Notes: generated by a model not told the origin, from the sequence alone. A stretch of 64,000 nt of DNA from an uncultured Bacilli bacterium (GCA_947591215.1 CANQCZ010000004.1:1770-65769), one strand, 5' to 3'. Positions 7,436-64,000 are shown, counted from the first letter of the stretch. Made by a program: numbers and translations.

Positions 7436-7436
7436 A

Positions 7437-10312: not shown

Positions 10313-10352
10313 AAAAAAAATTCATTTAGGAGGAGGATTGCTCCTCCTAAAT
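10313..10352 (-). terminator. intercistronic rho-independent terminator/attenuator between the binding-protein and permease genes
   Basis: On the minus strand: ATTTAGGAGGAG-caatc-CTCCTCCTAAAT, a perfect 12-bp stem, followed by GAATTTTTTTT. Confidence 0.65.
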
Positions 10353-13689: not shown

Positions 13690-14442
13690 TTAAATCAAAG
13701 CTTTAACCATCGCTTCAAATGATTCGATTTTTAGCGAGGCACCGCCTACTAAAGCTCCGTCAACATCTGCTTGTGAAAGATATCCCGCGATGTTTTCAGG
13801 CTTAACCGAACCGCCGTAAAGCACTAAGAGCTCTTCACTCACTGCGCCATACATACTTTTAACTATGTTTCTAACAAAGGCACAGACATCTTCCGCTATT
13901 CCTTCAGAAGCATTCTTGCCGGTTCCAATTGACCACACCGGTTCATAAGCGACAACGACATTTCTAAGTTGTTCACTTTTTAAATCTTTTAAACCGACTC
14001 TCAATTGTCTTTCCACAACTTCTTTAGTTAAACCTTCTTCAAATTCTTTTAAAGTTTCACCGACGCAATAAACCACAATCATGTCATTTGCAAGCAATTT
14101 TTGAATTTTTTTATTACATTTTTCATCGGTTTCGTTATCATATTGACGTCTTTCGGAATGTCCGATAATAACCCAATCGATACCCAACTCTTTTAACATC
14201 GGGATTGAAACTTCACCGGTAAACGCACCATGATCTTCATAATGGCAGTTTTGAGCCGCGACAATTAATCCAGAACTATTGCTTTTAACTGCATCTAAGC
14301 TTAAATATGTAGGAGCTACTCCAACCAAAATACCGGCAGATGAAGCCATTTTAACAATCGGTGCTGTAAGTTTTGCAAAGCTTTTCGCTTCCAAAACTGT
14401 TTTATTCATTTTCCAGTTACCGAGTAACAATTTTTTTCTCAT
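13690..14442 (-). CDS. tpiA: triosephosphate isomerase
   Basis: Motifs GNWKMN, IIGHSERR and YEPVWSIGTG. Confidence 0.95.
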   Translation of the reverse strand: MRKKLLLGNWKMNKTVLEAKSFAKLTAPIVKMASSAGILVGVAPTYLSLDAVKSNSSGLIVAAQNCHYEDHGAFTGEVSIPMLKELGIDWVIIGHSERRQYDNETDEKCNKKIQKLLANDMIVVYCVGETLKEFEEGLTKEVVERQLRVGLKDLKSEQLRNVVVAYEPVWSIGTGKNASEGIAEDVCAFVRNIVKSMYGAVSEELLVLYGGSVKPENIAGYLSQADVDGALVGGASLKIESFEAMVKALI

Positions 14443-14446
14443 AATT

Positions 14447-15652
14447 TTAGCCTATTACATCAATGCCGGGTAAATGGCCGTCATTTTCAATCATTTCCAA
14501 GGAAGCGCCGCCACCGGTTGAAACGTGGGAGAAACGATCCTTATAACCGAACTTTTTAACTGCTGAAGCCGAATCACCACCGCCGATAACCGTAAAAGCA
14601 TCTTTTAATTCGGCACAGGCTTTACAAACAGCGATCGTGCCGTCGACGAATTGTTCTTTTTCAAACACACCCATTGGTCCATTCCAGAAAACAGTATGAG
14701 CTTTGGCGATTTCCGAGCAATATAATTCGATGGTTTTGTCTCCGATATCCATACCTTCATAACCTTCTGGAATCTCGTCAACTGAAACTACTTTAACATC
14801 GGTCGGATTATCGAAGTCATTAGCGATTTTAACATCTACCGGAAGTAAAATTTTGCCGGTGTCATACATTTCGCGAGCATAATCTAATTGGTCCAATTCG
14901 CAAGGAGAAGCTCCGATGTTTTTTCCTAAAGCTTTTAAGAATGTGTAAGCCATCGCACCACCGATGATGACCTTATCGCATTTTTTAACCAAAGAATTGA
15001 TAACTTTAATTTTATCTGAGACTTTAAATCCACCTAAAATTGCTACATATGGTCTTCCTTCACTCGGTACCTCGACCACTCTTTTCAAAGAAACAACCTC
15101 TTTTTCAACTAAATAACCGATAGCTGTTTGTTTTCCTTCTTTATTTAATATTTCAGGAACGCCATAAGTTGAAGCGTGAGCTCTATGAGCAGAACCGAAA
15201 GCATCCATTACAAAAGCATCGCATAAGCTCGCCCATTCTTTTGAAAGGTCTGGATCATTTTTAGATTCGCCTTTTTCATAACGAGTATTTTGAACTAATA
15301 AAACTTCGCCTTCTTTTAAACCTTTTACTGCCTTAGCTAATTCTTCACCACGGACAGCTGGGCAGAAGAAAACTTCTTGATTTAGCAATTCGCCAAGACG
15401 AACCGCGACCGGAGCTAAATTATTTTTCTTTTTAGCTTTTTCGATTTCTTCCGGTGTTTTCTTATAATCAATCTTACCTAAGTGAGACATCAAAACAACT
15501 TTGGCGCCTTTTTTAATTAATTCCTTAATTGTCGGTAACGCGGCAACAATACGATTATCATCGCTGATTTTGCCATCGATAAACGGAACATTAAAATCGC
15601 AGCGAACTAAAACTGTCAAACCTTTGACGTCAAGATCTTTTACATTTTTCAT
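14447..15652 (-). CDS. pgk: phosphoglycerate kinase
   Basis: Motifs RCDFNVP, MSHLGK and VIGGGDSASAV. Start at MKNVKDL (15652), preceded by AAGGAG. Confidence 0.95.
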   Translation of the reverse strand: MKNVKDLDVKGLTVLVRCDFNVPFIDGKISDDNRIVAALPTIKELIKKGAKVVLMSHLGKIDYKKTPEEIEKAKKKNNLAPVAVRLGELLNQEVFFCPAVRGEELAKAVKGLKEGEVLLVQNTRYEKGESKNDPDLSKEWASLCDAFVMDAFGSAHRAHASTYGVPEILNKEGKQTAIGYLVEKEVVSLKRVVEVPSEGRPYVAILGGFKVSDKIKVINSLVKKCDKVIIGGAMAYTFLKALGKNIGASPCELDQLDYAREMYDTGKILLPVDVKIANDFDNPTDVKVVSVDEIPEGYEGMDIGDKTIELYCSEIAKAHTVFWNGPMGVFEKEQFVDGTIAVCKACAELKDAFTVIGGGDSASAVKKFGYKDRFSHVSTGGGASLEMIENDGHLPGIDVIG

Positions 15653-15763
15653 TCTTTTTCTCCTTTTCATAAAAATAAAGCGCCCAAGAAGCGGGCGCTA
15701 ATCTTAGTGATTTTTTCACTGGGTACAAAGCTACCCTAATTTAACACTTTCAGAAATTAGAAA

Positions 15764-16798
15764 TTAGCAATTTTCTGAGAAATATTTAATTGTACGAACC
15801 ATTTGAGTGGTGTAGGAATTTTCATTATCATACCAAGCGACAACTTGGACTTGATATAAACCATCACCTAAAGAAATGACCATGGTTTGAGTAGCATCGA
15901 ACAAGGAACCTTCTCTGATTCCAATGATATCAGAAGAAACTAATGGTTCTTCAGTATAGCCATAAGATTCATTGGCAACTGATTTCATATAAGCGTTAAT
16001 GGTATCTTTAGTAACTTCTTTATCGCTTTTAATAACTGCGACTAGGATAGTCGATGAACCGGTTGGAACTGGGACACGTTGAGCGGAACCGATAAGTTTG
16101 CCATTTAATTCCGGAATTACTAATCCGATGGCTTTAGCGGCACCGGTTGAGTTTGGAACGATGCTACAAGCCGCGGCTCTAGCTCTTCTTAAATCGCCTT
16201 TTCTATGTGGACCATCTAAGACCATTTGGTCTCCGGTGTAAGCGTGAACTGTCGTCATAATACCACTTTGAATAGGAGCGAAATCATTTAAAGCTTTAGC
16301 CATTGGTGCTAAGCAATTCGTGGTACAAGAAGCCGCTGAAATGATTTGATCTTCTTTTGTTAAAGTTTTGTGGTTAACATTGTAGACAATAGTCTTTAAA
16401 TCTTTACCAGCCGGAGCGGAAATGATAACCTTTTTTGCACCAGCATTGATGTGTGCCATCGATTTTTCTTTGGAACAATAGAAACCGGTGCACTCTAACA
16501 CCACATCGACATCAAGAGCTTTCCATGGGCAGTTATTCGCATCTTTTTCGGCATAGATTCTGATCTTTTTACCGTCGACTGCGATCCAGCCTTCTTCTGC
16601 ACCATCTTCGGAACAAGTGACCTTATCGGCGAGCTCATATCTTCCTTGAGCCGAATCGTACTTCAACAAATGAGCGAGCATTTTTGGGCTCGTTAAATCG
16701 TTGATAGCGACGACTTCATAACCTTCGGCACCAAACATTTGGCGGAAAGCGAGACGTCCGATACGTCCAAATCCATTAATTGCAATTTTTACTGACAT
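15764..16798 (-). CDS. gap: glyceraldehyde-3-phosphate dehydrogenase
   Basis: [12 protein letters not shown]-binding motif and active site SCTTNCLAP. Confidence 0.95.
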
Positions 16799-16992
16799 TT
16801 ATTATGTCCTCCTTCTTTTGCACTGCAAGTGTATTATACCTCATCTAATAAAAATTTTAAAAGTATTTTGATAATGTTTTATTGCGATTTTTTATAATGA
16901 ATAAAAAAATTTCGCAGCTGCGATTAATTTTTAATGTATATTTTTCGAATTTTACTCTTACACTAAATTAGACAACTTGAGGAAAAAATCTT

Positions 16993-17586
16993 ATGCCAAT
17001 TATTCCCGCAATCAGTATTCAAAGTTATGACGGAGTAAAAAATTACGACTTGTTTTCTTTACTATTGAGCGAAAGAATCATTGTTTTGTCAGGCGAAATC
17101 AATGATGAAGTCGCTTCTTTGGTGATTTCTGAAATTCTTTATTTGAGCGCCGCTTCACCGAGTGAAAAAATAACGATTTACATAAATTCACCGGGTGGAT
17201 CGGTAAGCGCCGGTTTGGCGATTTACGATGCGATGAAAATTTCACCATGTACCATCGAAACAATCGGGGTTGGACTTTGTGCATCTATGGGAGCTTTTTT
17301 GCTTTCAAGCGGCACCAAAGGTTATCGTCGCGCCTATCCTAATTGTGAGATTATGATTCATCAACCATTAGGGGGCACCAACGGGCAAGTCAGCGACTTA
17401 GAAATCATGACTAAACGTTTTATTTTCTTAAAAAAGAAACTCAATCGCATCTTAAGCGAAAATACATCACAACCAATCGAAAAAATCGAAGCCGATTGTG
17501 ATAGGGATTATTTTTTAGAGCCTCAAGAAGCAAAGGATTATAACTTGATTGATGATATTTTAAGTCGATCTTCCAACAAAGAATAA
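16993..17586 (+). CDS. clpP: ATP-dependent Clp protease proteolytic subunit
   Basis: YINSPGGSV, catalytic Ser in GLCASMGAF, His in MIHQPLGG, Asp in DRDYF. Confidence 0.9.
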   Translation: MPIIPAISIQSYDGVKNYDLFSLLLSERIIVLSGEINDEVASLVISEILYLSAASPSEKITIYINSPGGSVSAGLAIYDAMKISPCTIETIGVGLCASMGAFLLSSGTKGYRRAYPNCEIMIHQPLGGTNGQVSDLEIMTKRFIFLKKKLNRILSENTSQPIEKIEADCDRDYFLEPQEAKDYNLIDDILSRSSNKE

Positions 17587-51899: not shown

Positions 51900-52007
51900 T
51901 TGAATAATGGCAAAAATTTATCACATTTTCATTAGATAATAACATGTTGATAATTAACTACTTTCAAGGATTTTCAAATTTAACTATAATATGGTTAAGG
52001 TAAAGAT

Positions 52008-52415
52008 ATGCAAAGAAAATTATTATATTTTATACTTCCGATTATTACTCTTGTTTTAGAAATATTACCCTATGGAGCAGTATGTATTTTTGCTGATGGC
52101 TTAAATCATATTCGCCGAGTGACATATTCTTACTTTGATTTAATTCCATTTGGAAATGCTAATTTTGCACCATTACTGACAGCGATAATAAGTTGTATTG
52201 TTATTATTATACTTATAATCTATTTATTTATAGATAAGTATCGAATAATATCGCTAGTAAAAACATTACTTTTAGTCGCTTTGATATTATCATTATGTCC
52301 TTTACTCTATGGTTTCGATTATTATTCACTTATCGACCTACTGATTACCTTATCTATATTTTCGGAATTACTATTGTTATCTTTAACTACAAAAAACACA
52401 AATGTTGAAAAATAA
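52008..52415 (+). CDS. hypothetical 4-TM membrane protein
   Basis: A very AT-rich 135-aa ORF consisting of hydrophobic helices. No family recognised. Confidence 0.45.
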   Translation: MQRKLLYFILPIITLVLEILPYGAVCIFADGLNHIRRVTYSYFDLIPFGNANFAPLLTAIISCIVIIILIIYLFIDKYRIISLVKTLLLVALILSLCPLLYGFDYYSLIDLLITLSIFSELLLLSLTTKNTNVEK

Positions 52416-52723
52416 TTTCTCATTTAATCTATAATTATTTAAATCTTAAATAATATCAACGTGAAATCACCTTGTACTGACTAATCCGATAAGAGCTAAT
52501 ACTCCACTGACCCATAAAGATCATGGAGGATCTAGCAACTAAGCATATTATCTTTCTTAATTTTGATATATTCTTTTTGTATCAAGTTCCATGTCAACAC
52601 AAAGTATTTCTCGCCTAGAATACCTTGTTTTCAAATTTATATTTTAAGTTTACAAATCTTTCAAATATCATCAAACTCAAACTGCTTTTTCCATTTTAAA
52701 CTTCATAGAAATTTGAAATAGGT

Positions 52724-52766
52724 GCCAAAGCAAGACAAAGAAGTTGGTCACAAGTGTCACAACTTC
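52724..52766 (-). terminator. candidate terminator of the long minus-strand operon
   Basis: Minus strand: GAAGTTG-(13 nt)-CAACTTC followed by TTTGTCTTGCTTT, about 45 nt after the stop at 52811. A second imperfect hairpin (CGGG-ttt-CCCG core) lies at about 52775-52800. Confidence 0.4.
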
Positions 52767-52810
52767 GCCCCTCAACAAACGGGAAACCCGCTTTTGGAGG
52801 TAGAATCAAA

Positions 52811-54832
52811 TTAATCTTTCACTGAGATTTGGCTTTTAAAAGCGTTCCAAAGACGACTGCGTTTATATTGTTCCACTAAGCTTGAAGGAACTGTAAATTC
52901 AGCTTTTTCATCTATTGAATAAAATGCATTTGCACCAAATGGTATGACTCTATCGCAGTGAATCAAAATCTTTTTAAGCCAATGGCAATAGCGAAAAGCA
53001 TTCATTCCTATCTCGACAGTTTCTGCCGGCAATTCAATCGTCTCTAATTCGTCACAATATGCAAATGCCCAGTCGCCTATTCGGTTAACATTATTGAAAA
53101 TAATTGTTTTCAATGCGCTGTTGTTATAAAAACTCCACCTACCGAAATTTTTCACATCATTTAACTCAAGCATTTCCAAATACGGATTGTTCCGGCAAAA
53201 ATCATCGCATATATCGCCGTGCACAATTAACGTTTTTATTTGAGGACACTCACCTGAAAAATAATACGAGAGTTTACGGTTACCGGGAATATCCATCTGT
53301 TTCAATTTGATACAATTATAAAAGATTCCTTTACCTATGCTTGTGGACTTTGCAATAGAAACAGACCGCAAATCCGTCGCGTAAAACGCATAATCTCCGA
53401 TAGAATGTCCTATGAATTCAAAATCTTTAACAGCTGTTTTTCCAAAAGCCACAATTCCGATTTTTTGAAGATCATTCGGCACGACACATAGACTATGGCA
53501 ATTCCATAACGCTCCCTTTTCTGCATAAACCAATCCTTTCACATTTATAAGCTGCGCACAATTTGTCATGGCGCAAGGAGCAAAATTTTTTACAGCAATC
53601 TGCTTTAAGGAAGAACATCCGAACATGCCAAACTTGCCTATCGAATCTATGTCGAGATTTTCATCCAGCATTTTGCAATTGTAAAATGCAAACGGTGGGA
53701 CTGATTTGGGGATAAAATCGACATGTTTTAAGCTTGTACAATTGTAAAATATGCCCTCTGGAAAATCTATCTTCTTTCCAAATATCACTGATTCAACCTT
53801 TGTATTGGCAAAACAATATCCCGAAAGCATCTCTATACCATGCGGCAAGGTAACTTCCCGTTCGATACCTAAATATTTATATAATGTCTTGCCTAGAATG
53901 GCAAATGAGCCTTGATCTTTAAACCACTTTGTGTCGTACAAAGCACTGTTTCCAATATGCTCTACGCTTTCACCACCATGGATTAACTTAAGGTTTTTTG
54001 CCCCAAGGAAAGCGTGTTCGCCGATGAATTTCAAAGTATGTGGAAGATTTATTTCAACTAAACCACTACACTTTGAGAATGCGTAATCTCCGATCATCTC
54101 AATGCCATCGGGAATTAGTATTTCCGTCATTTCACTGCGATCATGAAATGCGCCACTTGCAATAACCTTTACCGGTACACCGTCGATCTTTGCCGGTATA
54201 ATATGCTTTTTTAAACTTTTCCCTTCTTTCGTCAATCCTTTGATCTCAATAATATCGCCTTTACGGTTATACTTAAACTCATGATAGATCCCAAAGGACT
54301 TAGTTTCATATTTAATGTTTGAAGCGTTTTTGGTCGACAGCACTACAATCTTACAAAATTCACATCTCTCGTCGTATATCTTTTCAAATATATACGGCGG
54401 AGTAGAAGATGAGCAAAGCAATTTGATATTAGGATACATTTTTCTCAACCGATTGGCAAATAAAAACCAATCGCCACACTCCTGAATCTCATTAACAACA
54501 AGATATGTAATTTCATGCCGTTCCATAATTGCCTTTTGAAAAACATCTAAAATATTCGCTTCTTGCAGAAACGGCAATTCGTAATCAAGATATAATATTT
54601 GTTCTTTTTCTATACCTCGCTGCAAAAGATCGCGGCAAATACGACCAAGCATATCTGTCTTACGCAGCCCCGTTTCCCCCACCAAAAAAACATAATTATT
54701 CTGTGCGTTATCAAAATATAGTTCTTGCACTTCATTGTAATCATACGCAAATGCTGGATCGGAAAAATCTGTGTCAGGTGCGTCTTCGAAAACGTCATGA
54801 TTTATAATATAATTGATAAATTTTTCTTTCAT
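52811..54832 (-). CDS. AAA_14-like P-loop NTPase domain (degenerate Walker motifs) fused to BspA-type leucine-rich repeats (LRR_5)
   Basis: Residues ~45-165, YVFLVGETGLRKTDM...ILYLDYE...YLVVNEIQECGDW...KLLCSSS, follow the AAA_14 layout. From residue ~210 to the end there are about 10 repeats of the form IP.gv..IG..AF..C..L. No signal peptide and no TM segment. Confidence 0.75.
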   Translation of the reverse strand: MKEKFINYIINHDVFEDAPDTDFSDPAFAYDYNEVQELYFDNAQNNYVFLVGETGLRKTDMLGRICRDLLQRGIEKEQILYLDYELPFLQEANILDVFQKAIMERHEITYLVVNEIQECGDWFLFANRLRKMYPNIKLLCSSSTPPYIFEKIYDERCEFCKIVVLSTKNASNIKYETKSFGIYHEFKYNRKGDIIEIKGLTKEGKSLKKHIIPAKIDGVPVKVIASGAFHDRSEMTEILIPDGIEMIGDYAFSKCSGLVEINLPHTLKFIGEHAFLGAKNLKLIHGGESVEHIGNSALYDTKWFKDQGSFAILGKTLYKYLGIEREVTLPHGIEMLSGYCFANTKVESVIFGKKIDFPEGIFYNCTSLKHVDFIPKSVPPFAFYNCKMLDENLDIDSIGKFGMFGCSSLKQIAVKNFAPCAMTNCAQLINVKGLVYAEKGALWNCHSLCVVPNDLQKIGIVAFGKTAVKDFEFIGHSIGDYAFYATDLRSVSIAKSTSIGKGIFYNCIKLKQMDIPGNRKLSYYFSGECPQIKTLIVHGDICDDFCRNNPYLEMLELNDVKNFGRWSFYNNSALKTIIFNNVNRIGDWAFAYCDELETIELPAETVEIGMNAFRYCHWLKKILIHCDRVIPFGANAFYSIDEKAEFTVPSSLVEQYKRSRLWNAFKSQISVKD

Positions 54833-55512
54833 TTTTGATTCTCTCCCAAGGTTAAAAGTCTATTGTATACGGTCGAAAATTTTCCAACATCTTTGTCCAC
54901 GTGATAATGTCCGAAATACCATTTACGATACTCAACCGTATCTTTGATTGTCTCTAAATAATCGTTCAAAATTCGTTCTTGCGGCACAAGATTGGCTCCT
55001 ATTCGTTCGGCGACTGAAGTCGGTGCAACATGGGTAAGAACATAATCTACACGATTGCCGCACTGTTTCAAATTGGTTATTCCTCTTTCATATTCCTGTT
55101 CATTTGGCATTTCTTGATCCCATACGGAAATCGGCGAGGTTCCGTCAAGTTTTTTTACCGAAAAGCCACCCCCGAAAACGAATATCTTTGTATTATCGAA
55201 TGAAAATATGCATCCTCTCATCAGTCGATAGATTTTATCGCTAATTTTTTGCGCTTTGCCACCAAAAAAATTCTGTTCCTCATATTGTTCCAGCAGGTCG
55301 AAATTCTCATGATTGCCATCCAAAAACAAAGTTATATTCGGCAAAGAGTTATAAAACTCCCTTACCTCCTTATGTTCGGTTTTACTCCAAACGATTCCAG
55401 CATCTCCGAGAATAATGAGATAATCATCTTTTTGCAAGGGTATATTTTGCAAGAGTCCTTTAAGATAAGGAAGTCTTATATGCCCATGAATATCCGAAGT
55501 TAAATAGATCAT
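54829..55512 (-). CDS. calcineurin-like metallophosphoesterase
   Basis: Motifs SDIHGH, LGDAGIVW, DGNHEN and THVAP. Confidence 0.8.
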   Translation of the reverse strand: MIYLTSDIHGHIRLPYLKGLLQNIPLQKDDYLIILGDAGIVWSKTEHKEVREFYNSLPNITLFLDGNHENFDLLEQYEEQNFFGGKAQKISDKIYRLMRGCIFSFDNTKIFVFGGGFSVKKLDGTSPISVWDQEMPNEQEYERGITNLKQCGNRVDYVLTHVAPTSVAERIGANLVPQERILNDYLETIKDTVEYRKWYFGHYHVDKDVGKFSTVYNRLLTLGENQK

Positions 55513-58145
55513 TTAACGACCTCCTTTATAAGAGATGTAGATGTGTGAGCAAAAGCATTTTCTCCAAATGTAACTCCTCGTTTATAAGTAATCCGGGCAA
55601 GAGCTTTATCATAAGCAAAGGCCTTTTCATCTACATTCTTCACGTTGCGCAAATCTATTTCACGTAAATAATACGCATCCGATAAAGCTCGAAAAGCAAT
55701 TTTCTCCGTTACGTCAGGCGCTGTATATTTTTCATTCTTCTTCCCGATTGCATATTGAAGTAATGTTTTTTTATCAGCAGTATAAAGGTTGCCGTCTTGT
55801 GATGCAAATGCCGCATTGTTATCCGATACCGATATCCACTTTAGGCGTTCACAAGAACCGAATGCATAAGTACCGATTTCAATGACATTCGACGGGATTG
55901 ATATTTCACTCAACAAATCGCAACCATGGAATGCCCACGCACCGATAAAGACGAGCGAATCGGGAAGTTCAATTACAAGCAGATTTTTGCAATCGTCAAA
56001 TGCGCTAGTCTCAATTTTCTTAACGGTGCACGGCAATATGACTTTTTCGATGTTCCTTGCATTTTGAAATGCGTTACGTCCGATTGTTTCAACTCCCTCA
56101 GGAACAGTATATACTTTTTCGGGGGAAGCAAGCGGATACCTTACAAGCGTTTTCTTGTCCTTAGAGAACAGCACCCCAGATTCCGTACAATAAAATTTGT
56201 TATCTTTCTCAACGAAGATTTTTTTAATGCTGCTCGAATAGAAACAAGTTGGATCGACAACTTTGACAGAAGCATTTACATATAACTTTCCGGCATAAGA
56301 ATTATTTGTGCCGATTTCTTTCAATTCATCATAATGAACGAATCTCAATTCATGGCTTTGCGTCAAAGCTTCCACGTCGATTCCATAAGCAAATAAATCA
56401 CGCATGGTACGTTCAGCATCTTGCTCTAAGGCTTTCAGCAGATATTCCTTTGCTTTTTCCAAATCTTTTTCCACGCCTACTCCGTTCAAAAAACAATATG
56501 CTATGTCTCCGGTTCCGTGCGAATAGTGGTTCTTTGACGCCATTTCAAAATATTCCATAGCCTTTTGCGCATCAGCTTTTACGCCGTATCCGTGCAAATA
56601 ATTTTGTCCAACATCGCGCATCGAATGAACATATCCAAGATCGGCGGATTTCTTATACCAATAAAAAGATTTCTCTTCATTCTTCTCTACGCCCTGTCCC
56701 ACAAGATACATATAACCAAGGTCACACATTGCTTCGAGATTTCCCAAATTGGCCGCTTCTAAATAATATCCGAAAGCTATGTCAAAATTTCGCACTTTGC
56801 CGAGCCCAAACGAATACATATCGCCGAGAAGTACTAAAAAATCCGCTTTTTTATTTTTCGCCTTGCGTTCTATCTCGTCTTTTATTTCTGCTACGATTGA
56901 TTGTGCTTTGGAAATATCTTGAGAAGCACCATTCCCTTCAAAGTAACCTAATGCATAGTAAAATGCGCCTTTAGGATTTCCAAGCTTGGCCGCTCTAAAG
57001 AAACAGATTTGCGATAATTCTTTGTGCCGATAAAATCTTTTGCTTCCGATAGAATATTCTTTTCCTCTTTTAATCCATTCCTCAGAATCGATATTCGAGT
57101 AAATCCCATCGAAAACTCCAACTAAATAGTGGTCATCAAACCAAGCACATTTACAAGGCTGCACACTACGTTCCAGTCTGGACAAAGTGTCGATTTTTTC
57201 TATCCAAAGTTCCTCCTTGAGCGGCAAATATTCAAGCAAGCCAAGTTGTGCTTCTTGCGTAATCATCTCAGACACTAGACATTTGATACCGACCGCCTGT
57301 GCCTCAATCGAAACTATCGATAAACCCTCATATAAAGACGGCAATAGCAATCCATATGATAACGACATGAGTTCTGTAATGTTGCTGTCAGGTGGTAAAA
57401 TCTTAATATTATTAAGTCCGTTACGCGAAATAAAACTCTCGATTTCTTGCTGTAAATGACCATGACCTACAAAAACAAACCCAATATCCGTTCTATCCCG
57501 CATATTCAAACACAGATTTAATAAAAATTCGATATTCTTTTGCTTCGCAAATCTTCCCACGAATAAAAAATATTTTTTGTTTGCATCTAATCCGTACTTT
57601 GCAAATTCTTTATTGTCCATGTCGAAGAATCGGGAATAATCTATTGCATTGTATATTGTTTCGCCATCACGTCCATATAGGAACTCTCTTGCCGCATCGG
57701 AGCAAGCGAGGCAATGCGTCGCATATTTTTTTACCATCCGTGCAGAAATTGCTTTTGCTATTCTCTTTCCTAAAGTCAAGCCACGTGGATTGGCTTGATG
57801 ACAGTGGGATATCCGAACCGGCACGTTTTCTTTATATGATTGCTTCAAGTACAATCCATTATTTGAAAAATAGTGCGAATGAACGGCAATCGGCTTCTCT
57901 TTTCTTATGATTTCTCTTATTTGTTTTGACTGCCGCAATGAGCGTATAAGTCCCCGTCCCTTAACGCATACATCATACACTTTCCCACCTAGTGATAAAA
58001 TCTCTTCTCGATAATGGTCGTTTCTCTTTGCCGTATTAATAAAAATAAATTGATACTCGGTATGCATTTTGCGATACAATGTCATAATAAAGGACGAAAT
58101 CCCGTTTATTCTCAAATTGCCACCTATTTGAATGACTTTTTTCAT
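55509..58145 (-). CDS. GT4-family glycosyltransferase fused to Sel1 repeats and BspA-type LRRs
   Basis: Residues 1-~340 form a GT-B fold with FLFVGRFAKQKN and YEGLSIVSIEAQAVG. Residues ~385-600 hold about 5 Sel1-like repeats (LGYMYLVGQGVEKNEEKSFYWYKKSADLG and similar). Residues ~640-878 hold LRR_5 repeats (VPEGVETIGRNAFQNARNIEKVILP...). No signal peptide. Confidence 0.75.
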   Translation of the reverse strand: MKKVIQIGGNLRINGISSFIMTLYRKMHTEYQFIFINTAKRNDHYREEILSLGGKVYDVCVKGRGLIRSLRQSKQIREIIRKEKPIAVHSHYFSNNGLYLKQSYKENVPVRISHCHQANPRGLTLGKRIAKAISARMVKKYATHCLACSDAAREFLYGRDGETIYNAIDYSRFFDMDNKEFAKYGLDANKKYFLFVGRFAKQKNIEFLLNLCLNMRDRTDIGFVFVGHGHLQQEIESFISRNGLNNIKILPPDSNITELMSLSYGLLLPSLYEGLSIVSIEAQAVGIKCLVSEMITQEAQLGLLEYLPLKEELWIEKIDTLSRLERSVQPCKCAWFDDHYLVGVFDGIYSNIDSEEWIKRGKEYSIGSKRFYRHKELSQICFFRAAKLGNPKGAFYYALGYFEGNGASQDISKAQSIVAEIKDEIERKAKNKKADFLVLLGDMYSFGLGKVRNFDIAFGYYLEAANLGNLEAMCDLGYMYLVGQGVEKNEEKSFYWYKKSADLGYVHSMRDVGQNYLHGYGVKADAQKAMEYFEMASKNHYSHGTGDIAYCFLNGVGVEKDLEKAKEYLLKALEQDAERTMRDLFAYGIDVEALTQSHELRFVHYDELKEIGTNNSYAGKLYVNASVKVVDPTCFYSSSIKKIFVEKDNKFYCTESGVLFSKDKKTLVRYPLASPEKVYTVPEGVETIGRNAFQNARNIEKVILPCTVKKIETSAFDDCKNLLVIELPDSLVFIGAWAFHGCDLLSEISIPSNVIEIGTYAFGSCERLKWISVSDNNAAFASQDGNLYTADKKTLLQYAIGKKNEKYTAPDVTEKIAFRALSDAYYLREIDLRNVKNVDEKAFAYDKALARITYKRGVTFGENAFAHTSTSLIKEVVK

Positions 58146-59806
58146 TTTCGAATTATCTCCGCTTTACAATTATTGAAGGTATTCGGAAGAATCTTTATAT
58201 GTTTCGGTACAATAACTCTTTTCAAGCCATGACATCCATCAAAACACCAATCGGCAATTTCTTCCACGCTTTCGGGAATCTCTATTTCTTCAAGCTCGAC
58301 GCATTCCGAAAATGCACTCCTGCCAAGAAAGCGGAGCCCCTTCGGCAGTACGATTTTTTTAAGTGTGTAGCAACCTGTAAAAGCACTTCTACCGATATTG
58401 ACTACGCCTTCCGGCAAAACAATATTTCCTTCTTTTACCGCCGTCGAGGGACAAAAAACCACCTCTTTCCCTGTGGCATCATATAAGATGCCGTACCGCT
58501 CCATATAATATGGGCTATGATTTTCGAGAACTACGTTTCTACAATTCGCAAACGGATTATAACCAATCTGTCTGACAGAGGCTGGAATTATAATTTTTTC
58601 TATCATATCGCAATTCCAAAAACAATTTCTCCCAATGGTCCTTACTGTTTCGGGGAGTTTTACAATTTTTACTCCCAATCCCATCGAATAATGCATACAA
58701 GTAGTAATATTTTTGTCATACAATACGCCATCGATATAATGAAAATATTCACTTTCATTTTTGAGTTTGATGTTACGACAATCCGAAAAAGCATTGTTTC
58801 CCATAAATGTCACATTCTTGGTTATGACAACAAGGCGGAGATTTACGCATTTGTAAAAGCTGTGCTTACCTATCCACGTTACGCTTTCTGGAATTCGGTA
58901 TTCCCAAGAAGGATTGCTTGCCGTATAATGAATCAAAAACTTCATTTCACGATCAAACAGAACTCCATCTTTCAGGACAAAATACACACTGTTGTTTTCT
59001 ATTTCAATATCTAGGCAACCCGCAAACGGATCATCTCCCATTTCATCGACACTAGCAGGAATATTTATTTTTTTCAGGTTTTTACAGTAAACAAAAGCAT
59101 CACCGCAAATACAAGTCACACTATCTGGCAAAATTACTTCCTTAATAGCAAGATTTTTCCAAAAAGCCCCCGTGCCTATGCTTGTAATTCCGTTCGGTAT
59201 CTTCACAACAGGAGCACTGCCGAGATATTTTATCAATTCACCATTTTTGACATAAAACTCTTTCTCGTATTCTTGTTCATCGTAATCAATAGAAAAAGTA
59301 TCAGGATACAATGGAGCTTTTTTTTCAAACAACCCTTTGGTAAATTTCTTATCCAACACATGGATTTCTGACTTAAAATCCACAAGGCCACCGGAAAGTT
59401 GTGAAGTGTAGAGACATTCATTCTTCCCGCTCGATCGATAGCCACTTATGAGTTTCTCATAATCTTTTCCCCACCCGGAAACATAAATTCCAATATATAA
59501 AATTTTTGTCTGCGGATAAGTAATAGCAATATCATAGCCATCTGAATTGACAAGCACGCAAGAAGAATCATATCCCTTCTTCAACAATCTATCTATCACT
59601 TCTAAAATTGAGAAATCTTTGTACGCACGCAACTCGTAACTCTCACCACGATATTCAAACCTCTGCTCCTCGGAATATATTGTAATCGCGCAATCCTTAT
59701 AACGATATTTAAAGATATCGGGCGCCACTTCAAGGTAACCCAATTTCCGATAGAGAATAATGTATTTCATGTCAATAAACAATGTGTCTTTATGTTTTTC
59801 AATCAT
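58142..59806 (-). CDS. unknown ~190-aa N-terminal domain fused to BspA-type LRRs
   Basis: The C-terminal ~360 aa are LRR_5 repeats (IPNGITSIGTGAFWKNLAIKEVILP, LPEGVVNIGRSAFTGCYTLKKIVLP). I do not recognise the N-domain. No signal peptide. Confidence 0.7.
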   Translation of the reverse strand: MIEKHKDTLFIDMKYIILYRKLGYLEVAPDIFKYRYKDCAITIYSEEQRFEYRGESYELRAYKDFSILEVIDRLLKKGYDSSCVLVNSDGYDIAITYPQTKILYIGIYVSGWGKDYEKLISGYRSSGKNECLYTSQLSGGLVDFKSEIHVLDKKFTKGLFEKKAPLYPDTFSIDYDEQEYEKEFYVKNGELIKYLGSAPVVKIPNGITSIGTGAFWKNLAIKEVILPDSVTCICGDAFVYCKNLKKINIPASVDEMGDDPFAGCLDIEIENNSVYFVLKDGVLFDREMKFLIHYTASNPSWEYRIPESVTWIGKHSFYKCVNLRLVVITKNVTFMGNNAFSDCRNIKLKNESEYFHYIDGVLYDKNITTCMHYSMGLGVKIVKLPETVRTIGRNCFWNCDMIEKIIIPASVRQIGYNPFANCRNVVLENHSPYYMERYGILYDATGKEVVFCPSTAVKEGNIVLPEGVVNIGRSAFTGCYTLKKIVLPKGLRFLGRSAFSECVELEEIEIPESVEEIADWCFDGCHGLKRVIVPKHIKILPNTFNNCKAEIIRK

Positions 59807-60383
59807 GGATAAATCCTCTCTTTATTAGTTCGCTTTTCATTTTGGTAACAACTTCTTGTTCAGTCAAATCGGTCGTATCTAAAACGATACCCGGCATCTT
59901 GTATTTGTTCATGGCATATTGCATTTTTTTATATGCAGAAGGAATCAATGCCACCTTTTTAAGGTCGGGATCGTGAAGATTACGAGAACGCAATCTTCGT
60001 TCCACAACGATCGGATCGGCATAAACCAAAAAGGTAAAATCCGGTGCCCCAATCGTTTGGAAAATAGCATCGAAAATATAATCAGTATTTTGATCCCCGC
60101 TCCAACAGTAATTGGATAAGATATGCCTGTCCGTAATGATGTTTTGGTTTGCAAATCTTTCATAAAGATAAATATTGCCAAGCCCGTAAAACCAAGCAGT
60201 AAAGGCTTTATTTGGGTTTTTATTGACCTCATCACGGATACGGATGTACTCATCGTTCTTGCCATCCTCGTTAAATAAAAAATGTAAAGGCTTCTCAATC
60301 AACTTGAATCCAAGCATTTCGGAAAGGTTCCTAGCAGCCGTACTCTTTCCGACACCATCTATTCCTTCTATTGCAATATGCAT
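59799..60383 (-). CDS. thymidylate-kinase-like / deoxynucleoside(-monophosphate) kinase family P-loop protein
   Basis: N-terminal IAIEGIDGVGKST P-loop, a DRH-like motif (ITDRHILS), and a size of about 190 aa. Confidence 0.7.
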   Translation of the reverse strand: MHIAIEGIDGVGKSTAARNLSEMLGFKLIEKPLHFLFNEDGKNDEYIRIRDEVNKNPNKAFTAWFYGLGNIYLYERFANQNIITDRHILSNYCWSGDQNTDYIFDAIFQTIGAPDFTFLVYADPIVVERRLRSRNLHDPDLKKVALIPSAYKKMQYAMNKYKMPGIVLDTTDLTEQEVVTKMKSELIKRGFIHD

Positions 60384-60392
60384 ATGTTCCTC

Positions 60393-62087
60393 CTAATTAC
60401 TCGTTCTGGCACGAACTTCATTTTTCTTGCCCGATGTAAAACCGTCTAAAATTTCAAGATAACCGCTAACCCGTCTGATATGCGTTACATTTTCACACCC
60501 GCAAATCGGGCACAGATCAAACACCCCGGTGGCATGACAATTGTTGCAACTGTCAAGCGGAAAATTGATGCCGAGATATCTTACCCCCGCTGCAACTGCA
60601 ATTTCAACAAGCTCTTTAAGTCCCTCGTCGTTGCCTATCGGTGCCTCATTTAATTCGATATATGAGATGCTCCCACCATTTGCATAGAGGTGGAACGGTC
60701 CTTCTTTTGTCAGCTTTTCTCTTGCGGAAAGCCCGCTATCTACATTAACATGAAACGAATTTGTATAAAAACCCTTATCAAAGATATCGATATTTGGAGA
60801 AAACATCTTCTTATCCATTTCCGAAAATCTACCGCTTATCAACTCTCCACTTGTAGCAAGCAAAGAAAAGTTCAAATTTAATTTATTTCTTTGTTCGTCG
60901 CAATAGTTTCTCATAAACTTTACAAAATCAATGGCAATACGATAGGATTCATCGTTGGCATAATACCTGCTGCCTGTTATAATCTCGACCATCTCCGAAA
61001 GTCCGATAAATCCGATTGAAAGAGTACCATGTATAAACACATTCTTCGGATCATCGAATGGCACACACCACAATTGTCTTGATCTGTTTACGGGAAACTC
61101 ATCTGCATCGGAAATACATACCTTATGATAGCGATCCACCAAAATTTCGGTAACCATATCCGCTATTTCGGACCACCTCTCTTTTACCTTTGCAATTTTA
61201 TGAACCCACTCAAGATTTGGAAAGTCCCGATCCACTTCAAGAGCAAGTCGAGGAAGATTGATGCTGATATTAGCGATGTTTCCTCTTCCAATTGCCGTTT
61301 TCTCTCCAAATAGATCGTCAACCACACGCGTGCGGCAACCCATTACAGAAAGCTTTTCGGGAGCGACTCCTTCATCGGACGCACAATCGCAAAGAAGATA
61401 TGTCGGAATCATCTTCTTAGCCGAACATAGTAGTGCTTTTTGGAATAAATCAAAGTTGCCGTCTCCCGGATACCTATTGATTCCTTTTACGACCTTAAAC
61501 ACGATATTTGGCTTAAAAGTTGTCGCTCCTACCTTTTCGAATTCATTGATAAGTGCATATGCGATGAACCTCGCGAATTTATTTTTTGCAAGTCCTATAT
61601 TAAGCGTTATGTAATAACTTGTCTGTCCCATTCTTGTATGGGTGTTGCTGCACCAAATAATAAAGTCCCCTATGCATTCGGAGATAATGGCTTCCGTATG
61701 TTTTGAGTGCTTAACGCCGAGTTTAAAAAAAATTGTTGAAAGGTCATTATCGAAATTTGCGAATGCCATCCCACCGGACTGCTCATTTCCCATATCGGCA
61801 AACAACGTTTTAAAATAGCCGAATACCCGTATGATTTTTCCCGTTTCCGATAATCCATCAAACAATTGATATGGAAAATTTTGTAATAGGTTAAATGTCA
61901 AACAATTATAAGTTTTTCCGTAAGCATCTAGGTCATGAATGTGAATGTACCCTTCCGTGTGAAGTTTGGACCATTCTACGGGCAAAGAATCCAAAATTTC
62001 TTTTTTAAACTCTTTTTCGCCTTTATGATACACATAACCTACATAACTTGAGCGATTCGCCGCATTATCATTTGAAACTTGTTTCAT
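60393..62087 (-). CDS. nrdD: anaerobic ribonucleoside-triphosphate reductase (class III, short form without ATP-cone)
   Basis: C-terminal Zn ribbon CNNCHATGVFDLCPICGC followed by the glycyl-radical motif RRVSGYL. Adjacent to the activase. Confidence 0.85.
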   Translation of the reverse strand: MKQVSNDNAANRSSYVGYVYHKGEKEFKKEILDSLPVEWSKLHTEGYIHIHDLDAYGKTYNCLTFNLLQNFPYQLFDGLSETGKIIRVFGYFKTLFADMGNEQSGGMAFANFDNDLSTIFFKLGVKHSKHTEAIISECIGDFIIWCSNTHTRMGQTSYYITLNIGLAKNKFARFIAYALINEFEKVGATTFKPNIVFKVVKGINRYPGDGNFDLFQKALLCSAKKMIPTYLLCDCASDEGVAPEKLSVMGCRTRVVDDLFGEKTAIGRGNIANISINLPRLALEVDRDFPNLEWVHKIAKVKERWSEIADMVTEILVDRYHKVCISDADEFPVNRSRQLWCVPFDDPKNVFIHGTLSIGFIGLSEMVEIITGSRYYANDESYRIAIDFVKFMRNYCDEQRNKLNLNFSLLATSGELISGRFSEMDKKMFSPNIDIFDKGFYTNSFHVNVDSGLSAREKLTKEGPFHLYANGGSISYIELNEAPIGNDEGLKELVEIAVAAGVRYLGINFPLDSCNNCHATGVFDLCPICGCENVTHIRRVSGYLEILDGFTSGKKNEVRARTSN

Positions 62088-63202
62088 TTTTTCTCCCTCA
62101 GATTAATAAATTTTTGATTCGAAGATCCCAAATATGGTCTTGTCGTTGTTTTGTACCTTTCGTCAAATGCACCGATTTTAACGTAATGCAATTTTGACAA
62201 TATTGCTTGTGGTATGTCGGGCATATCATAACCCGTGTACATACAAAAATCAAATTCAGGCAACGCTTCAATTAGATTTTCGATTGCCTTTGCTTGCAAA
62301 AGCGGTTCGCCTCCCGAAAGAGTGATTTTTTTATTGAACGCCGTTTTGCGTATAATCTCTTTCAATTCTCCGACCGAGTATCGCGTGCCGCTTTCAAGCG
62401 GCCAAGTAGATGGGTTGTGACAATTTTTACAATGCCGTTTGCATCCTTGCAAATATATCACTGTTCGTAGCCCCGGTCCATCCACAAGCGACTCATGCTT
62501 CGAAATGGCATTGACATACAGCATCGAACTTTCAAATACTTCTTTCAGACATTTTAAGTTCGGAAGAGCAAGCATCGCTTTACTCGACGGGTGTTCCGTT
62601 ATCAAAATCGGCGTCAGCCCCACTGCTTCCGCTCCCTCGCAATCCTTGTCGATCTTATTCCCTACAAAATAAATTTCCCGACTTGCTCCCATCCCGATCA
62701 ATTCAAGGACTGCAGCAAAAGCTCGTTCCGACGGCTTTCTGTATCCAATATCTGCGCTGGAAATTAATCCTACAAAAAACTTAGATAAATAAAAGGTATC
62801 TAGATATTTTTTCAGTGTTACTGCAGAGAAAATGCTATTGCTAAGTACCGCCATCTTGTAACCACGCTCTTTCAAATAAGAAAGCGTATCAACTGCACCC
62901 TCTGACACTCTTTCCTTTCGGCAACAGATAAATGCCTCCCATTCAATATCTGCATACGATTTGGCAAAATGCTTACCAGTTTTCGTTTCATAAAACTTTA
63001 ACTGATGGACAAAACTTGTCTCACGATTGGTTTTATCTCTATCGCTCATATATTGCGAACGATATTCGGAAGCCAAATCATATATCCGTTTCTTTGCTTC
63101 GCCGAGACGTTCGGCTATGAGATCTAAAACCATATTATAATCGAACTGCTCCGTTTGAAGTAACGTTCCGAATAAGTCAAATAAAATAACTTTATCACTC
63201 AT
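62084..63202 (-). CDS. nrdG: fusion protein: HAD-superfamily hydrolase domain plus anaerobic RNR activating radical-SAM protein
   Basis: Residues 1-~215 are HAD (ILFDLFGTLL, VLSNS, YRKPS, FVGNKIDKD). Residues ~227-372 are NrdG (DGPGLRTVIYLQGCKRHCKNCHNP, ITLSGGEPL, GSSNQKFINL). One uninterrupted frame. No SD precedes the internal Met at 62524. Confidence 0.8.
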   Translation of the reverse strand: MSDKVILFDLFGTLLQTEQFDYNMVLDLIAERLGEAKKRIYDLASEYRSQYMSDRDKTNRETSFVHQLKFYETKTGKHFAKSYADIEWEAFICCRKERVSEGAVDTLSYLKERGYKMAVLSNSIFSAVTLKKYLDTFYLSKFFVGLISSADIGYRKPSERAFAAVLELIGMGASREIYFVGNKIDKDCEGAEAVGLTPILITEHPSSKAMLALPNLKCLKEVFESSMLYVNAISKHESLVDGPGLRTVIYLQGCKRHCKNCHNPSTWPLESGTRYSVGELKEIIRKTAFNKKITLSGGEPLLQAKAIENLIEALPEFDFCMYTGYDMPDIPQAILSKLHYVKIGAFDERYKTTTRPYLGSSNQKFINLREKK

Positions 63203-63221
63203 ATTTGCTCCTTTTTCATGC

Positions 63222-63791
63222 TTATAAGTTCATCATCGTATCCTTTTGGTAATTTCGCATATTCCAATTTTTCACGATCGCTTCATTCATTTTTAAAACG
63301 GACGAAAACGGTATTCTTGTAAGTCTCTTCACTCTCTCGTCACTAAAATGAGTATCGCCTATATAATAGATTATACCTACACCAGATTCTTTTATCTCTT
63401 CAATTTGGCGCATGAAATCTCTTTCCAAAATCTTTGCTCTCTTTTGACGATATCGCAGATTTTTTTTGTCTTTTTCTTTCTCGGATGAAAGCAGATATTG
63501 ATCATCCTGTATCCGTTCGTCAAAGTTTGGGATTCTTCGCTGATCTTGTATATTGTGACAATGCAAATATTGATCTTTTTTGTTTTGTTCTTTTAACAGT
63601 CTGTACTCCGAATACGAAATGCAATTAACTTCCGCAATTGCGTCTTTGTGGTCATGCTTTACACGTCCAAATTTACGAACACGTGTAGCGGCTTCGCTTC
63701 CGTTTTCAGCCATGACAGGAAAAACTATATAAATACACTTGCTTCTTCCAACATGCCCACATTTAGCTTTTACAGAATAATATTTTTTCAT
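63222..63791 (-). CDS. hypothetical KCGHVG-motif protein ending in a truncated metallophosphoesterase N-terminus
   Basis: Residues 1-~90 (KAKCGHVGRSK...RVKHDHKDAI) resemble small uncharacterised proteins I associate with Firmicute mobile DNA. Residues ~140-189, IIYYIGDTHFSDERVKRLTRIPFSSVLKMNEAIVKNWN, form motif I of a phosphoesterase. The ORF stops before motif II. Confidence 0.55.
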   Translation of the reverse strand: MKKYYSVKAKCGHVGRSKCIYIVFPVMAENGSEAATRVRKFGRVKHDHKDAIAEVNCISYSEYRLLKEQNKKDQYLHCHNIQDQRRIPNFDERIQDDQYLLSSEKEKDKKNLRYRQKRAKILERDFMRQIEEIKESGVGIIYYIGDTHFSDERVKRLTRIPFSSVLKMNEAIVKNWNMRNYQKDTMMNL

Positions 63792-63817
63792 TTCTTTTAT
63801 TCTCCTTTTCTACATTA

Positions 63818-63826
63818 ACTATAGCA
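63818..63826 (-). promoter_or_regulatory. extended -10 element (TGCTATAGT) upstream of the operon
   Basis: Minus strand TGcTATAGT, 27 nt upstream of the ATG at 63791, with AAAGGAGA as RBS. No good -35 element. Confidence 0.35.
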
Positions 63827-63909
63827 TCGCCCACATAAATAAAAAATTGCAATTCGAAAAAATTTTTGTTACCAAATATGCATTTTTTATTGATTTTTGC
63901 CGTATAAAT

Positions 63910-63928
63910 TGTTACCATATAGGTAACA
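63910..63928. promoter_or_regulatory. perfect 7-5-7 palindrome TGTTACC-ATATA-GGTAACA (candidate operator)
   Basis: Perfect inverted repeat 13 nt upstream of a plus-strand ATG (63941). A TGTTACCA half-site recurs at 63867-63874. Confidence 0.45.
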
Positions 63929-63940
63929 CAGAGGAAATAT

Positions 63941-64000
63941 ATGAAAGAATTTTGGGTCGAAAATGAACATATTAATTTGAATCTCACTTCTTTAGCGCAA
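63941..64000 (+). CDS. start of a divergent gene (MKEFWVENEHINLNLTSLAQ...), cut by the window edge
   Basis: The ATG is preceded by AGAGGAAA at 6-nt spacing. Only 20 codons are visible. LNLTSLAQ could be the start of an HTH, but this is unproven. Confidence 0.3.
   Translation, partial: MKEFWVENEHINLNLTSLAQ

Follow-up and report, generated by a model that had tools for sequence, protein, structure and literature searches.

The closest precedent for the overall design of the protein described here is offered by OGT and SPINDLY (SPY), cytoplasmic glycosyltransferases (GTs) of the GT-B fold that carry an alpha-helical repeat solenoid for protein interaction. In its fold and in the HxH, GRxxxxK and EX7E motifs, the protein has common ground with BshA, MshA and sucrose-phosphate synthase (SPS); MshA and SPS act in tandem with a dedicated phosphatase, which is fused to the synthase in SPS-SPP. 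By sequence, the closest relatives of its catalytic head outside the gene cassette described below are the GT4 enzymes of exopolysaccharide (EPS) and capsule loci, EpsF-like proteins that occur in standalone, tandem and triple versions alongside Wzx/Wzy genes and score 220-400 bits with a profile of the GT domain. Its leucine-rich repeats (LRRs) belong to the LRR_5 family of BspA, T. denticola LrrA and HupY/LrrG, and a match to the HupY model is found. Here we report on a gene that joins these elements, a GT4 domain, Sel1 repeats and BspA-type LRRs, in one polypeptide. It lies at 55509-58145 on the minus strand of a 64,000-nucleotide stretch of DNA (the whole of which is called the window below) from an uncultured Bacilli bacterium (GCA_947591215.1 CANQCZ010000004.1:1770-65769).

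The protein departs from each of these systems. OGT and SPY are GT41 enzymes with N-terminal TPRs, no second type of scaffold and no cassette context, whereas the present protein is a GT4 with C-terminal Sel1 and LRR_5 repeats, whose acceptor need not be a protein; membership of the GT41 OGT/SPY group was rejected on catalytic family and repeat position. BshA, MshA and SPS are only 13-20% identical to the cassette GT and have neither Sel1 or LRR extensions nor a linkage to ribonucleotide reductase (RNR). The GT4-phosphatase pairing of SPS-SPP and MshA/MshA2 is paralleled here by GT-phosphoesterase and HAD-GT fusions and by ATGA stop/start coupling, but the partner is a calcineurin-like metallophosphoesterase instead. 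The EPS and capsule GT4s have no repeat scaffold, and the cassette GT has loop residues of its own. BspA, LrrA and HupY/LrrG are secreted or surface adhesins, whereas the fusion protein has no export signal or anchor. A BspA-like adhesin was rejected as a candidate given the absence of a hydrophobic segment, the GT at the N-terminus and a score of 46.5 bits against the cut-off of 1250 for the HupY equivalog. We regard the protein as a new version of a repeat-scaffolded GT-B enzyme. The full-text literature yielded no published description of the fusion architecture or of the cassette; Methanomassiliicoccales genome papers merely count Sel1/LRR proteins as putative adhesion factors. As to function, we hold it somewhat probable that the protein is a GT4 on a docking scaffold beside a phosphoesterase, within a self-contained cytoplasmic complex of a mobile cassette. 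The gene and the modules of its product are as follows.

55509..58145 (-): GT4-Sel1-LRR_5 fusion open reading frame (ORF), 878 aa, ATG start, uninterrupted
57630..58145 (-): N-terminal (acceptor-side) Rossmann domain of the GT-B fold, aa 1-172, from Pfam Glyco_transf_4 and invariant residues
57096..57629 (-): C-terminal (donor-side) Rossmann domain of the GT-B fold, aa 173-350, from Pfam Glycos_transf_1, the BshA alignment and Foldseek
57303..57329 (-): EX7E motif E273...E281 (YEGLSIVSIEAQAVG), from conservation in homologues
56355..57086 (-): Sel1-like repeat solenoid, aa 354-597, from Pfam Sel1 and predicted helices
55512..56288 (-): BspA-type LRR_5 solenoid, aa 620-878, from Pfam LRR_5 and the PDB relatives 4fs7, 4gt6 and 4h09

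Every module was recognised in a Pfam search in which bit scores were compared with the curated gathering thresholds. Glyco_transf_4 (PF13439) matches aa 13-172 with 42.2 bits (threshold 28.5) and Glycos_transf_1 (PF00534) matches aa 178-293 with 60.6 bits (threshold 26.4), and PF13692 is also above threshold (51.1 bits against 27). Four Sel1 repeat matches (PF08238) together score 117.8 bits against 30.7, and LRR_5 (PF13306) matches aa 681-777 with 104.8 bits against 27.7. The Sel1 region is further related to the Sel1-like repeat proteins 6ok3, 8sxq and 6deh of the PDB (E=1e-39 to 1e-44), and the LRR_5 solenoid has the conserved repeat cores FDDC, FHGCD and FGSCE. An AlphaFold2 (AF2) model built from 75 homologues (mean pLDDT 94.7, pTM 0.85) is confident across both domain junctions. 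It places a GT-B fold of two Rossmann domains up to ~aa 350, 14 helices forming about six Sel1-like helix pairs at aa 354-597, and a beta-solenoid of about 258 aa at aa 620-878.

These results bear out the three-module GT4, Sel1 and LRR fusion in a single 878-aa ORF that an earlier note had read from the DNA sequence, and the junctions it put at ~57100 and ~56250 agree with the measured 57096 and 56288. The Sel1 array and the LRR_5 solenoid that it described are both real; its figures of about five repeats and about 240 aa give way to the roughly six helix pairs and 258 aa of the model. No transmembrane segment was found in the 878-aa protein (maximum Kyte-Doolittle 19-residue mean of 1.47) and no signal peptide, the chain opening with the first beta-strand of the GT and its Gly loop. 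Because there is no hydrophobic window of transmembrane grade and the chain begins with this strand and loop, the protein is best placed in the cytoplasm, where the earlier note had also put it. Its proposed coupling to both neighbours holds as well: ATGA stop/start overlaps join the gene to the downstream phosphoesterase gene (AAATGATC at 55509-55512) and to the upstream LRR gene (AAATGAAA at 58142-58145).

Some relatives do encode the GT and the Sel1-LRR part as separate genes, which would suit an explanation in which an assembly or frameshift artefact had fused separate genes in the window. Set against this, a word-indexed protein search returned ~80 independent homologue clusters with the fusion architecture (869-923 aa, or ~1,100 aa where the phosphoesterase is included; 37-88% identity to the query), clusters being formed at 90% identity and drawing on assemblies from NCBI, ENA, JGI and Logan. 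Among GTDB species, each represented by a single genome, 19 reference-genome loci with a full-length relative were located. As the check set by the earlier note required, the entire gene, both junctions included, is crossed by Logan contigs (16.6 kb and 12.9 kb) at even depth, with 12 single-nucleotide polymorphisms and no gaps or joints; these are run-by-run assemblies of a rabbit gut metagenome that is probably the source sample of the window, and the independent evidence is that of the homologues elsewhere. The AF2 model, confident through both junctions, also counts against an artefact. Relative to the closest orthologue (L001, 87% amino acid identity), dN/dS is 0.12 for the whole gene, 0.07 for the GT N-domain, 0.17 for the GT C-domain, 0.09 (0.088) for Sel1 and 0.13 for the LRR, and every domain is under purifying selection. 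The chance that the fusion is an artefact is practically negligible. Database names of the relatives go no further than 'leucine-rich repeat protein' or 'TPR repeat protein/glycosyltransferase'.

The GT head has the full set of residues expected of its family. Its N-domain carries the G8-G9 loop, H89/H91 and R111-I-S-H114-C-H116, and its C-domain carries G197-R198...K203-N204 together with the EX7E pair E273/E281, which lies in YEGLSIVSIEAQAVG (residues 272-286). In the alignment of the 75 homologues, conservation is complete or reaches at least 90% at G8-G9, H89, H91, R111, G197-R198, K203-N204, E273 and E281; E273, R198 and K203 belong to the invariant positions, and E281 to those with at least 90%. 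Both glutamates are 100% conserved in 60 standalone GT4 relatives, and with the donor-phosphate Arg/Lys pair included the range is 92-100%. The best PDB sequence match to the GT-domain profile is BshA 5d00 (E=4.5e-22), with which the HxHY, GRFxxQK and EX7E blocks align. Top Foldseek matches are BshA, MshA, sucrose-phosphate synthase, GlgM, PglA and HepE, and target-normalised TM-scores are 0.65-0.78 (E~1e-12) for BshA, MshA, HepE and PglA. NCBIfam matches all lie far under their equivalog cut-offs (42 bits against 274 for the BshA model). Judged from these alignments and models, the catalytic equipment is intact and the enzyme is predicted to be an active, retaining GT4. The EX7E-like motif and catalytic residues to which the earlier note had pointed are thus retained on alignment with the homologues and with BshA.

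Conservation is distributed unevenly along the protein. Averaged over pairs of 44 non-redundant homologues, identity is highest in Sel1 (0.55), followed by the LRR (0.48), the GT N-domain (0.47) and the GT C-domain (0.38). Within one genome, the LRR arrays of the three LRR_5 proteins of the cassette are mutually only ~20-28% identical, and therefore each array appears to have specialised and then been held constant. As far as an alignment can tell, repeat conservation this strong is the mark of a fixed internal partner, rather than of a module for host-directed or diversifying recognition.

The enzymes on this scaffold are rearranged between lineages, within an otherwise constant cassette. In ~20 clusters (P0049-P0077) the metallophosphoesterase continues from the C-terminal end of the LRR, the linker being all but absent, in fusion proteins of 1,085-1,110 aa. 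In P0041/L048 (loci are numbered L001 onwards), the HAD domain that usually sits on the RNR activase NrdG is found instead at the N-terminus of the GT (35% identity, E=2e-46; BLASTP). At L019 the GT (371 aa) and Sel1-LRR (564 aa) are separate, overlapping ORFs, and at L044 and L045 a 754-aa Sel1-LRR-Metallophos protein is accompanied by a 365-aa GT two genes downstream. Four independent domain rearrangements thus occur around Sel1-LRR. As Rosetta-stone fusions, they provide a putative functional link between GT, phosphoesterase, HAD and scaffold. The AF2 model of a natural GT-Sel1-LRR-phosphoesterase fusion is confident as a whole (pLDDT 91, pTM 0.72); the best 50 structural matches of this fusion are GT, Sel1 and LRR proteins, with no phosphoesterase neighbours among them. 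Because Sel1 is the most conserved segment, enzymes are reshuffled on the scaffold and the four-module fusion folds confidently, Sel1 and LRR_5 most likely form a fixed docking scaffold rather than a variable target selector, and we infer that this scaffold mediates a physical complex. The earlier suggestion that the repeats choose the target of the enzyme stands to the extent that they very probably set its associations, as a conserved docking scaffold and not as the variable selector that it had envisaged. Nucleic-acid binding by the repeats was rejected, since Sel1 (pI ~6.0) and LRR (pI ~6.7) are acidic to neutral and only the GT head is basic.

The same repeats bear on a second explanation, in which the protein would be a protein-directed O-glycosyltransferase resembling OGT and SPY, its solenoid presenting the substrate to the GT-B site. 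That substrate could come from the cassette (NrdD, say, or an LRR protein) or be some cytoplasmic protein that is universally conserved, and the phosphoesterase might act on the same target as a protein phosphatase in a phospho/glyco switch. The union of a repeat scaffold and a GT-B domain in one cytoplasmic polypeptide parallels OGT, highly conserved repeats fit a conserved protein partner, and a partner borne on the cassette would explain how function survives inter-domain transfer. The phosphoesterase has a GNHE motif and a weak match to the NinI-like Ser/Thr phosphatase phrog_246 (E=2.7e-4). Protein-directed GT4s also exist (GtfA; SdgA/SdgB, with the NCBIfam model glyco_SdgA), so the premise of the earlier note that GT4s are not protein-directed was too strong. 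On the other hand, the enzyme is GT4 and not GT41, its repeats are C-terminal and not N-terminal, its active-site residues are those of EPS-type GT4s, and no evident Ser/Thr-rich or repeat substrate protein is found in the cassette. The GT is also detachable and the phosphoesterase takes its place on the scaffold, as one would sooner expect of a docking platform than of an arm that presents substrates. We consider an OGT-like enzyme unlikely.

A docking scaffold calls for partners, and these may be sought among the neighbouring genes. The window is part of a low-GC bacterial chromosome with a ribosomal protein operon, SecY, UvrA, PGK and GAPDH, in which the fusion gene lies in a minus-strand run of mostly overlapping genes in the order HAD::NrdG, NrdD, Tmk-like kinase, LRR(554), GT-Sel1-LRR, metallophosphoesterase and AAA_14-LRR. 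The block comprises, besides the fusion gene:

63222..63791 (-): first ORF of the block, 189 aa, from tblastn, with a phrog_547 match at aa 128-189
62084..63202 (-): HAD phosphatase::NrdG activase fusion, 372 aa, from Pfam
60393..62087 (-): short class III ribonucleotide reductase NrdD, 564 aa, no ATP cone, from Pfam NRDD (341.6 bits) and NCBIfam NrdD
59799..60383 (-): thymidylate-kinase-like P-loop kinase, 194 aa, from Thymidylate_kin (48.4 bits) and phrog_761, VakA-like in PADLOC
58142..59806 (-): LRR_5 protein, 554 aa, ATGA-coupled to the fusion gene from upstream, from Pfam
54829..55512 (-): metallophosphoesterase, 227 aa, ATGA-coupled downstream, from Pfam Metallophos
52811..54832 (-): AAA_14-like and LRR_5 protein, 673 aa, last gene of the cassette, from Pfam

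The phosphoesterase has all five metal motifs invariant, the GNHE motif among them, and the AAA_14-LRR gene was found in every complete locus. The head of LRR(554) (59222-59806 (-), aa 1-195) is extremely conserved across all hosts, with the pattern DTLFIDMKYIILYRKLGY...PD...SExQRF...LExIDRLLKKGY...YTSQLSGGL; no Pfam family or solved structure matched this ~190-aa segment. A reading of its PD...ExQ as a BglII-like variant of the PD-(D/E)xK nuclease motif could not be substantiated. None of the three cassette LRR_5 proteins has a signal peptide, transmembrane segment or anchor, and their heads are enzymatic or NTPase-like. For the Tmk-like kinase, solved structures and Pfam gave no match informative of its substrate class. 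The 189-aa ORF appears to join a homologue of a 142-aa cassette protein to the remaining N-terminal piece of another small phosphoesterase; at L002 (5126-5554, 5557-6087), L018 and L040, these are separate, complete genes for the 142-aa unknown and a ~175-aa Metallophos_2 protein, and the window copy of the second phosphoesterase appears truncated. GC content is 0.37-0.40 over 52000-64000 (the cassette) as compared to 0.31-0.36 in the core genes at 48-52 kb, a slight elevation consistent with horizontal acquisition. Elsewhere in the window, a 962-aa ABC permease-type protein (7437-10325 (-)) has BPD_transp_1 only in its last ~215 residues, preceded by a long N-terminal part with no Pfam match, and lies within a maltodextrin/amylase utilisation cluster.

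With tblastn of the neighbouring genes, the same collinear gene set was found at 19/19 genome loci with a full-length homologue, and eight further loci retrieved by exact protein matching (L040-L045, L048 and L049) carry it as well, for a total of 27/27. Identities of the cassette genes co-vary across loci, as seen in four examples given in the order NrdD/LRR(554)/GT/phosphoesterase.

L001: ~90/88/87/84%
L002: ~71/70/62/60%
Treponema bin: ~50/50/43/45%
Acholeplasmataceae bin: ~48/46/38/38%

Bacterial hosts are uncultured Clostridia, 'Ca. Coproplasma', Eubacteriales, Anaeroplasmataceae, Acholeplasmataceae, Treponema and a Fibrobacteraceae bin, and archaeal hosts are the Methanomassiliicoccales archaeon RumEn M2 (on a 202-kb contig) and a 'Promethearchaeota' bin. 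These are the labels of metagenome bins, and those of Fibrobacteraceae and 'Promethearchaeota' are possibly mis-binned. The L041 contig has Arf/Roc-family GTPase and archaeal-type S19 genes, which suggest an Asgard-like archaeal host. All cassette hosts come from animal guts, including those of rabbit, ruminants and human. The search for homologous fusions and their neighbourhoods that the earlier note suggested thus finds them in number.

Mobile-element genes adjoin the cassette in two cases: an rve integrase fragment in the Treponema bin (L016, 5150-5764), and a large serine recombinase, a Rep (REP_ORF2-G2P) gene and UDG at L049 (15529-18437). Because the gene set is collinear, its identities co-vary, its hosts are widely spread and mobile-element genes adjoin it, the comparison of loci indicates that GT-Sel1-LRR belongs to a conserved cassette that has spread by horizontal transfer. 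No phage or plasmid record covered at least 80% of the fusion protein, and these records, like the BFVD viral predicted structures, gave single-domain matches only. The cassette also varies in content. The slot between NrdD and the kinase is taken by HAD in most lineages and by a NUDIX hydrolase at L041 (P0048 clade; 7304-7708), where the genes after the cassette encode a PHP phosphoesterase and an N6_N4 DNA methyltransferase (15465-17513). Extra Metallophos_2 or PHP genes come and go among cassettes, and at L019 the RNR and kinase genes are interleaved with the LRR and GT genes. In the Methanomassiliicoccales lineage, radical-SAM/SPASM and NTP_transferase genes directly follow the cassette (L040 15395-17052; L018 16369-18122); the idea that they form a donor-supply module was set aside as weak, since the pair occurs only at L018 and L040, which represent one lineage. 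At L018 the phosphoesterase lies in two overlapping pieces in different frames (13704-14370), suggesting a frameshift, and the AAA_14-LRR protein is shorter (14373-16052; 559 aa, coverage 0.81), with the GT-Sel1-LRR intact at 878 aa. Judging by these reading frames, the L018 cassette may be a partly decaying copy or may contain sequencing errors.

The effector-like design proposed in the earlier note is not supported. The protein has no secretion or translocation signal, the hosts have unrelated envelopes and secretion machinery, the cassette is fixed, and conservation within the protein is highest in its repeats. An exported effector or toxin was rejected on the lack of a signal peptide or transmembrane segment and on its occurrence alike in archaea, Mollicutes-like bacteria, spirochaetes and Clostridia. 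The known examples of secreted glycosylating effectors, for their part, use GT-A folds.

The patchy, mobile distribution and the gene neighbours raise a third explanation, a new system directed against phages or mobile elements, in which the LRR, Sel1 and AAA_14 modules would sense infection and the GT would modify nucleotides or DNA, so that the response would consist of altered nucleotide pools or of a glycosylated nucleotide or DNA. At L018 (3050-4825), L040 (1973-4298) and L048 (1116-2384), the cassette has RloB-like and/or AAA_21 (OLD/Abi-type) genes immediately upstream, and L018 also has a Vsr endonuclease nearby; together with the DNA methyltransferase and the integrase and recombinase genes, such neighbours recall a defence island. 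They are drawn from few lineages, however: L018 and L040 are 80% identical and count as one lineage, leaving at most two independent occurrences of a defence-island-like setting. PADLOC matches (E~1e-12) relate the kinase to VakA, a viperin-associated kinase, and to PDC-M51B, and the combination of NrdD/NrdG, a dNMP-kinase-like enzyme, phosphohydrolases and a GT-B recalls the nucleotide- and DNA-modification modules of phages (PHROG matches). In PADLOC-DB 2.0 no family matches the GT fusion, NrdD or LRR(554), and the kinase, phosphoesterase and AAA_14 proteins have weak, generic matches only.

For NTP-dependent conflict systems, GT effectors have been put forward (Kaur et al. 2020, PMC7159879). 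The cassette resembles such systems in combining GT and repeat modules within a mobile set of several prokaryotic genes. Unlike those systems it has no STAND, vWA or MoxR partners, none of which were found in any examined locus, and its sensor-like repeats are conserved, not diversifying. The GT4-conflict family (PF20706) was tried and rejected, with no window-protein match at E<=0.01 and relatives at 22-24 bits, under the 26-bit cut-off. The cassette has no base-modifying enzyme, and by their charge the acidic to neutral Sel1 and LRR segments would not bind DNA. Weighing these points, we judge a defence system quite unlikely.

We return to the reading of a docked GT4 in a self-contained complex. 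A soluble, cytoplasmic, retaining GT4 would be held by its conserved Sel1 and LRR_5 tail beside the downstream metallophosphoesterase, and probably also beside the two other LRR_5 proteins. The mobile cassette would encode the whole of this complex: NrdD/NrdG, HAD or NUDIX, the Tmk-like kinase, LRR, GT-Sel1-LRR, phosphoesterase and AAA_14-LRR. The partners are expected to be encoded in the cassette itself because it keeps all its genes through moves between Bacteria and Archaea, and a self-contained system is favoured because wall-less Mollicutes-like and archaeal hosts have neither a lipid-linked glycan acceptor nor a secretion system in common. Using what is presumably a universal NDP-sugar donor, the GT would glycosylate a phosphorylated small-molecule acceptor, and the phosphoesterase would then dephosphorylate the product, by analogy with SPS/SPP and MshA/MshA2. 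The idea of a phospho-acceptor arises because phosphatases of two unrelated folds occur fused to the GT and because MshA, BshA and SPS are its closest structures. Since the remaining cassette is nucleotide-centred, a nucleotide-derived acceptor is the most economical guess. By this analogy the acceptor is most plausibly nucleotide-derived, given the cassette content, although this is the weakest part of the proposal.

Several observations weigh against this reading. The GT head falls within a GT4 subfamily that is ordinary and very large, an exhaustive profile search finding 7,707 representatives at E<=1e-30, and the nearest non-cassette relatives of the head lie in Wzx/Wzy polysaccharide loci. 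The cassette GT and its EPS-type relatives have R111, H114, H116, R198, K203, E273, E281, Q283, W314 and Y349 in common, with cassette-specific positions only in N-domain loops (G8, N10, N14, N37-T38-A39, Y92, Y99, C115, Y192 and F195). With active sites so nearly identical, the ancestral acceptor was therefore presumably a (lipid-PP-linked) glycan rather than a phosphorylated small metabolite. With a median pI of 9.0, the GT domain has the basic character of peripheral-membrane GT4s. HAD is joined to NrdG instead of the GT in most cassettes and may serve the RNR/nucleotide branch. The phosphoesterase has no characterised close relative and no informative match among solved structures or in Pfam. 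Repeat scaffolds, moreover, are unusual on purely metabolic enzymes, and in OGT and SPY they select protein substrates.

Much of this would be expected if the protein were instead a peripheral-membrane GT4 that extends a lipid-linked or envelope glycan, its tail recruiting it to envelope-biogenesis proteins and its link to RNR reflecting hitch-hiking. Along with the polysaccharide-locus relatives, the shared active-site residues and the basic GT domain, the best plasmid matches are EPS-cluster GTs, and in Methanomassiliicoccales, the only lineage in which this is seen, an NTP_transferase gene comes after the cassette. In contrast, a flippase, polymerase, priming transferase or other envelope gene was found at 0/27 loci, among the hosts are wall-less Mollicutes-like bacteria as well as archaea, with different lipid carriers, and both the interleaving of genes at L019 and the shift of HAD between NrdG and the GT argue for one functional unit and not for hitch-hiking. 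Taken together, these data make an envelope-directed enzyme highly improbable.

In terms of acceptor, a phospho-metabolite or nucleotide is our foremost candidate for the docked GT4, at somewhat short of an even chance. A cassette protein is a possible but doubtful acceptor, a lipid-linked or envelope glycan is a distinctly unlikely one, and a nucleic acid or some other acceptor would each be very unlikely. More speculatively, the GT may be the modifying enzyme of an undescribed mobile machine that makes a glycosylated (deoxy)nucleotide or nucleoside or glycosylates DNA, serving as a new product pathway or as a new kind of system against phages or mobile genetic elements, and would be common to gut bacteria and archaea. 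In such a machine the three LRR_5 proteins would scaffold RNR, the dNMP-kinase-like enzyme, interchangeable phosphohydrolases (HAD, NUDIX, metallophosphoesterase and PHP) and the GT4. We view this extension as improbable.

Gut anaerobes abound in cytoplasmic BspA-type LRR proteins, for which there is hardly any explanation. In the present case an LRR/Sel1 scaffold is fixed to an apparently active enzyme with defined partner genes, which makes the problem experimentally tractable. The cassette has crossed Clostridia, Mollicutes-like bacteria, spirochaetes and methanogenic archaea keeping every gene, and such gene-complete transfer across phyla implies a portable function that is independent of host-specific partners. 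The identity of the GT acceptor would reveal an unknown glycosylated nucleotide or metabolite, a regulation of RNR by glycosylation, or a new defence module, and would offer a first functional handle on the intracellular LRR_5 proteins.

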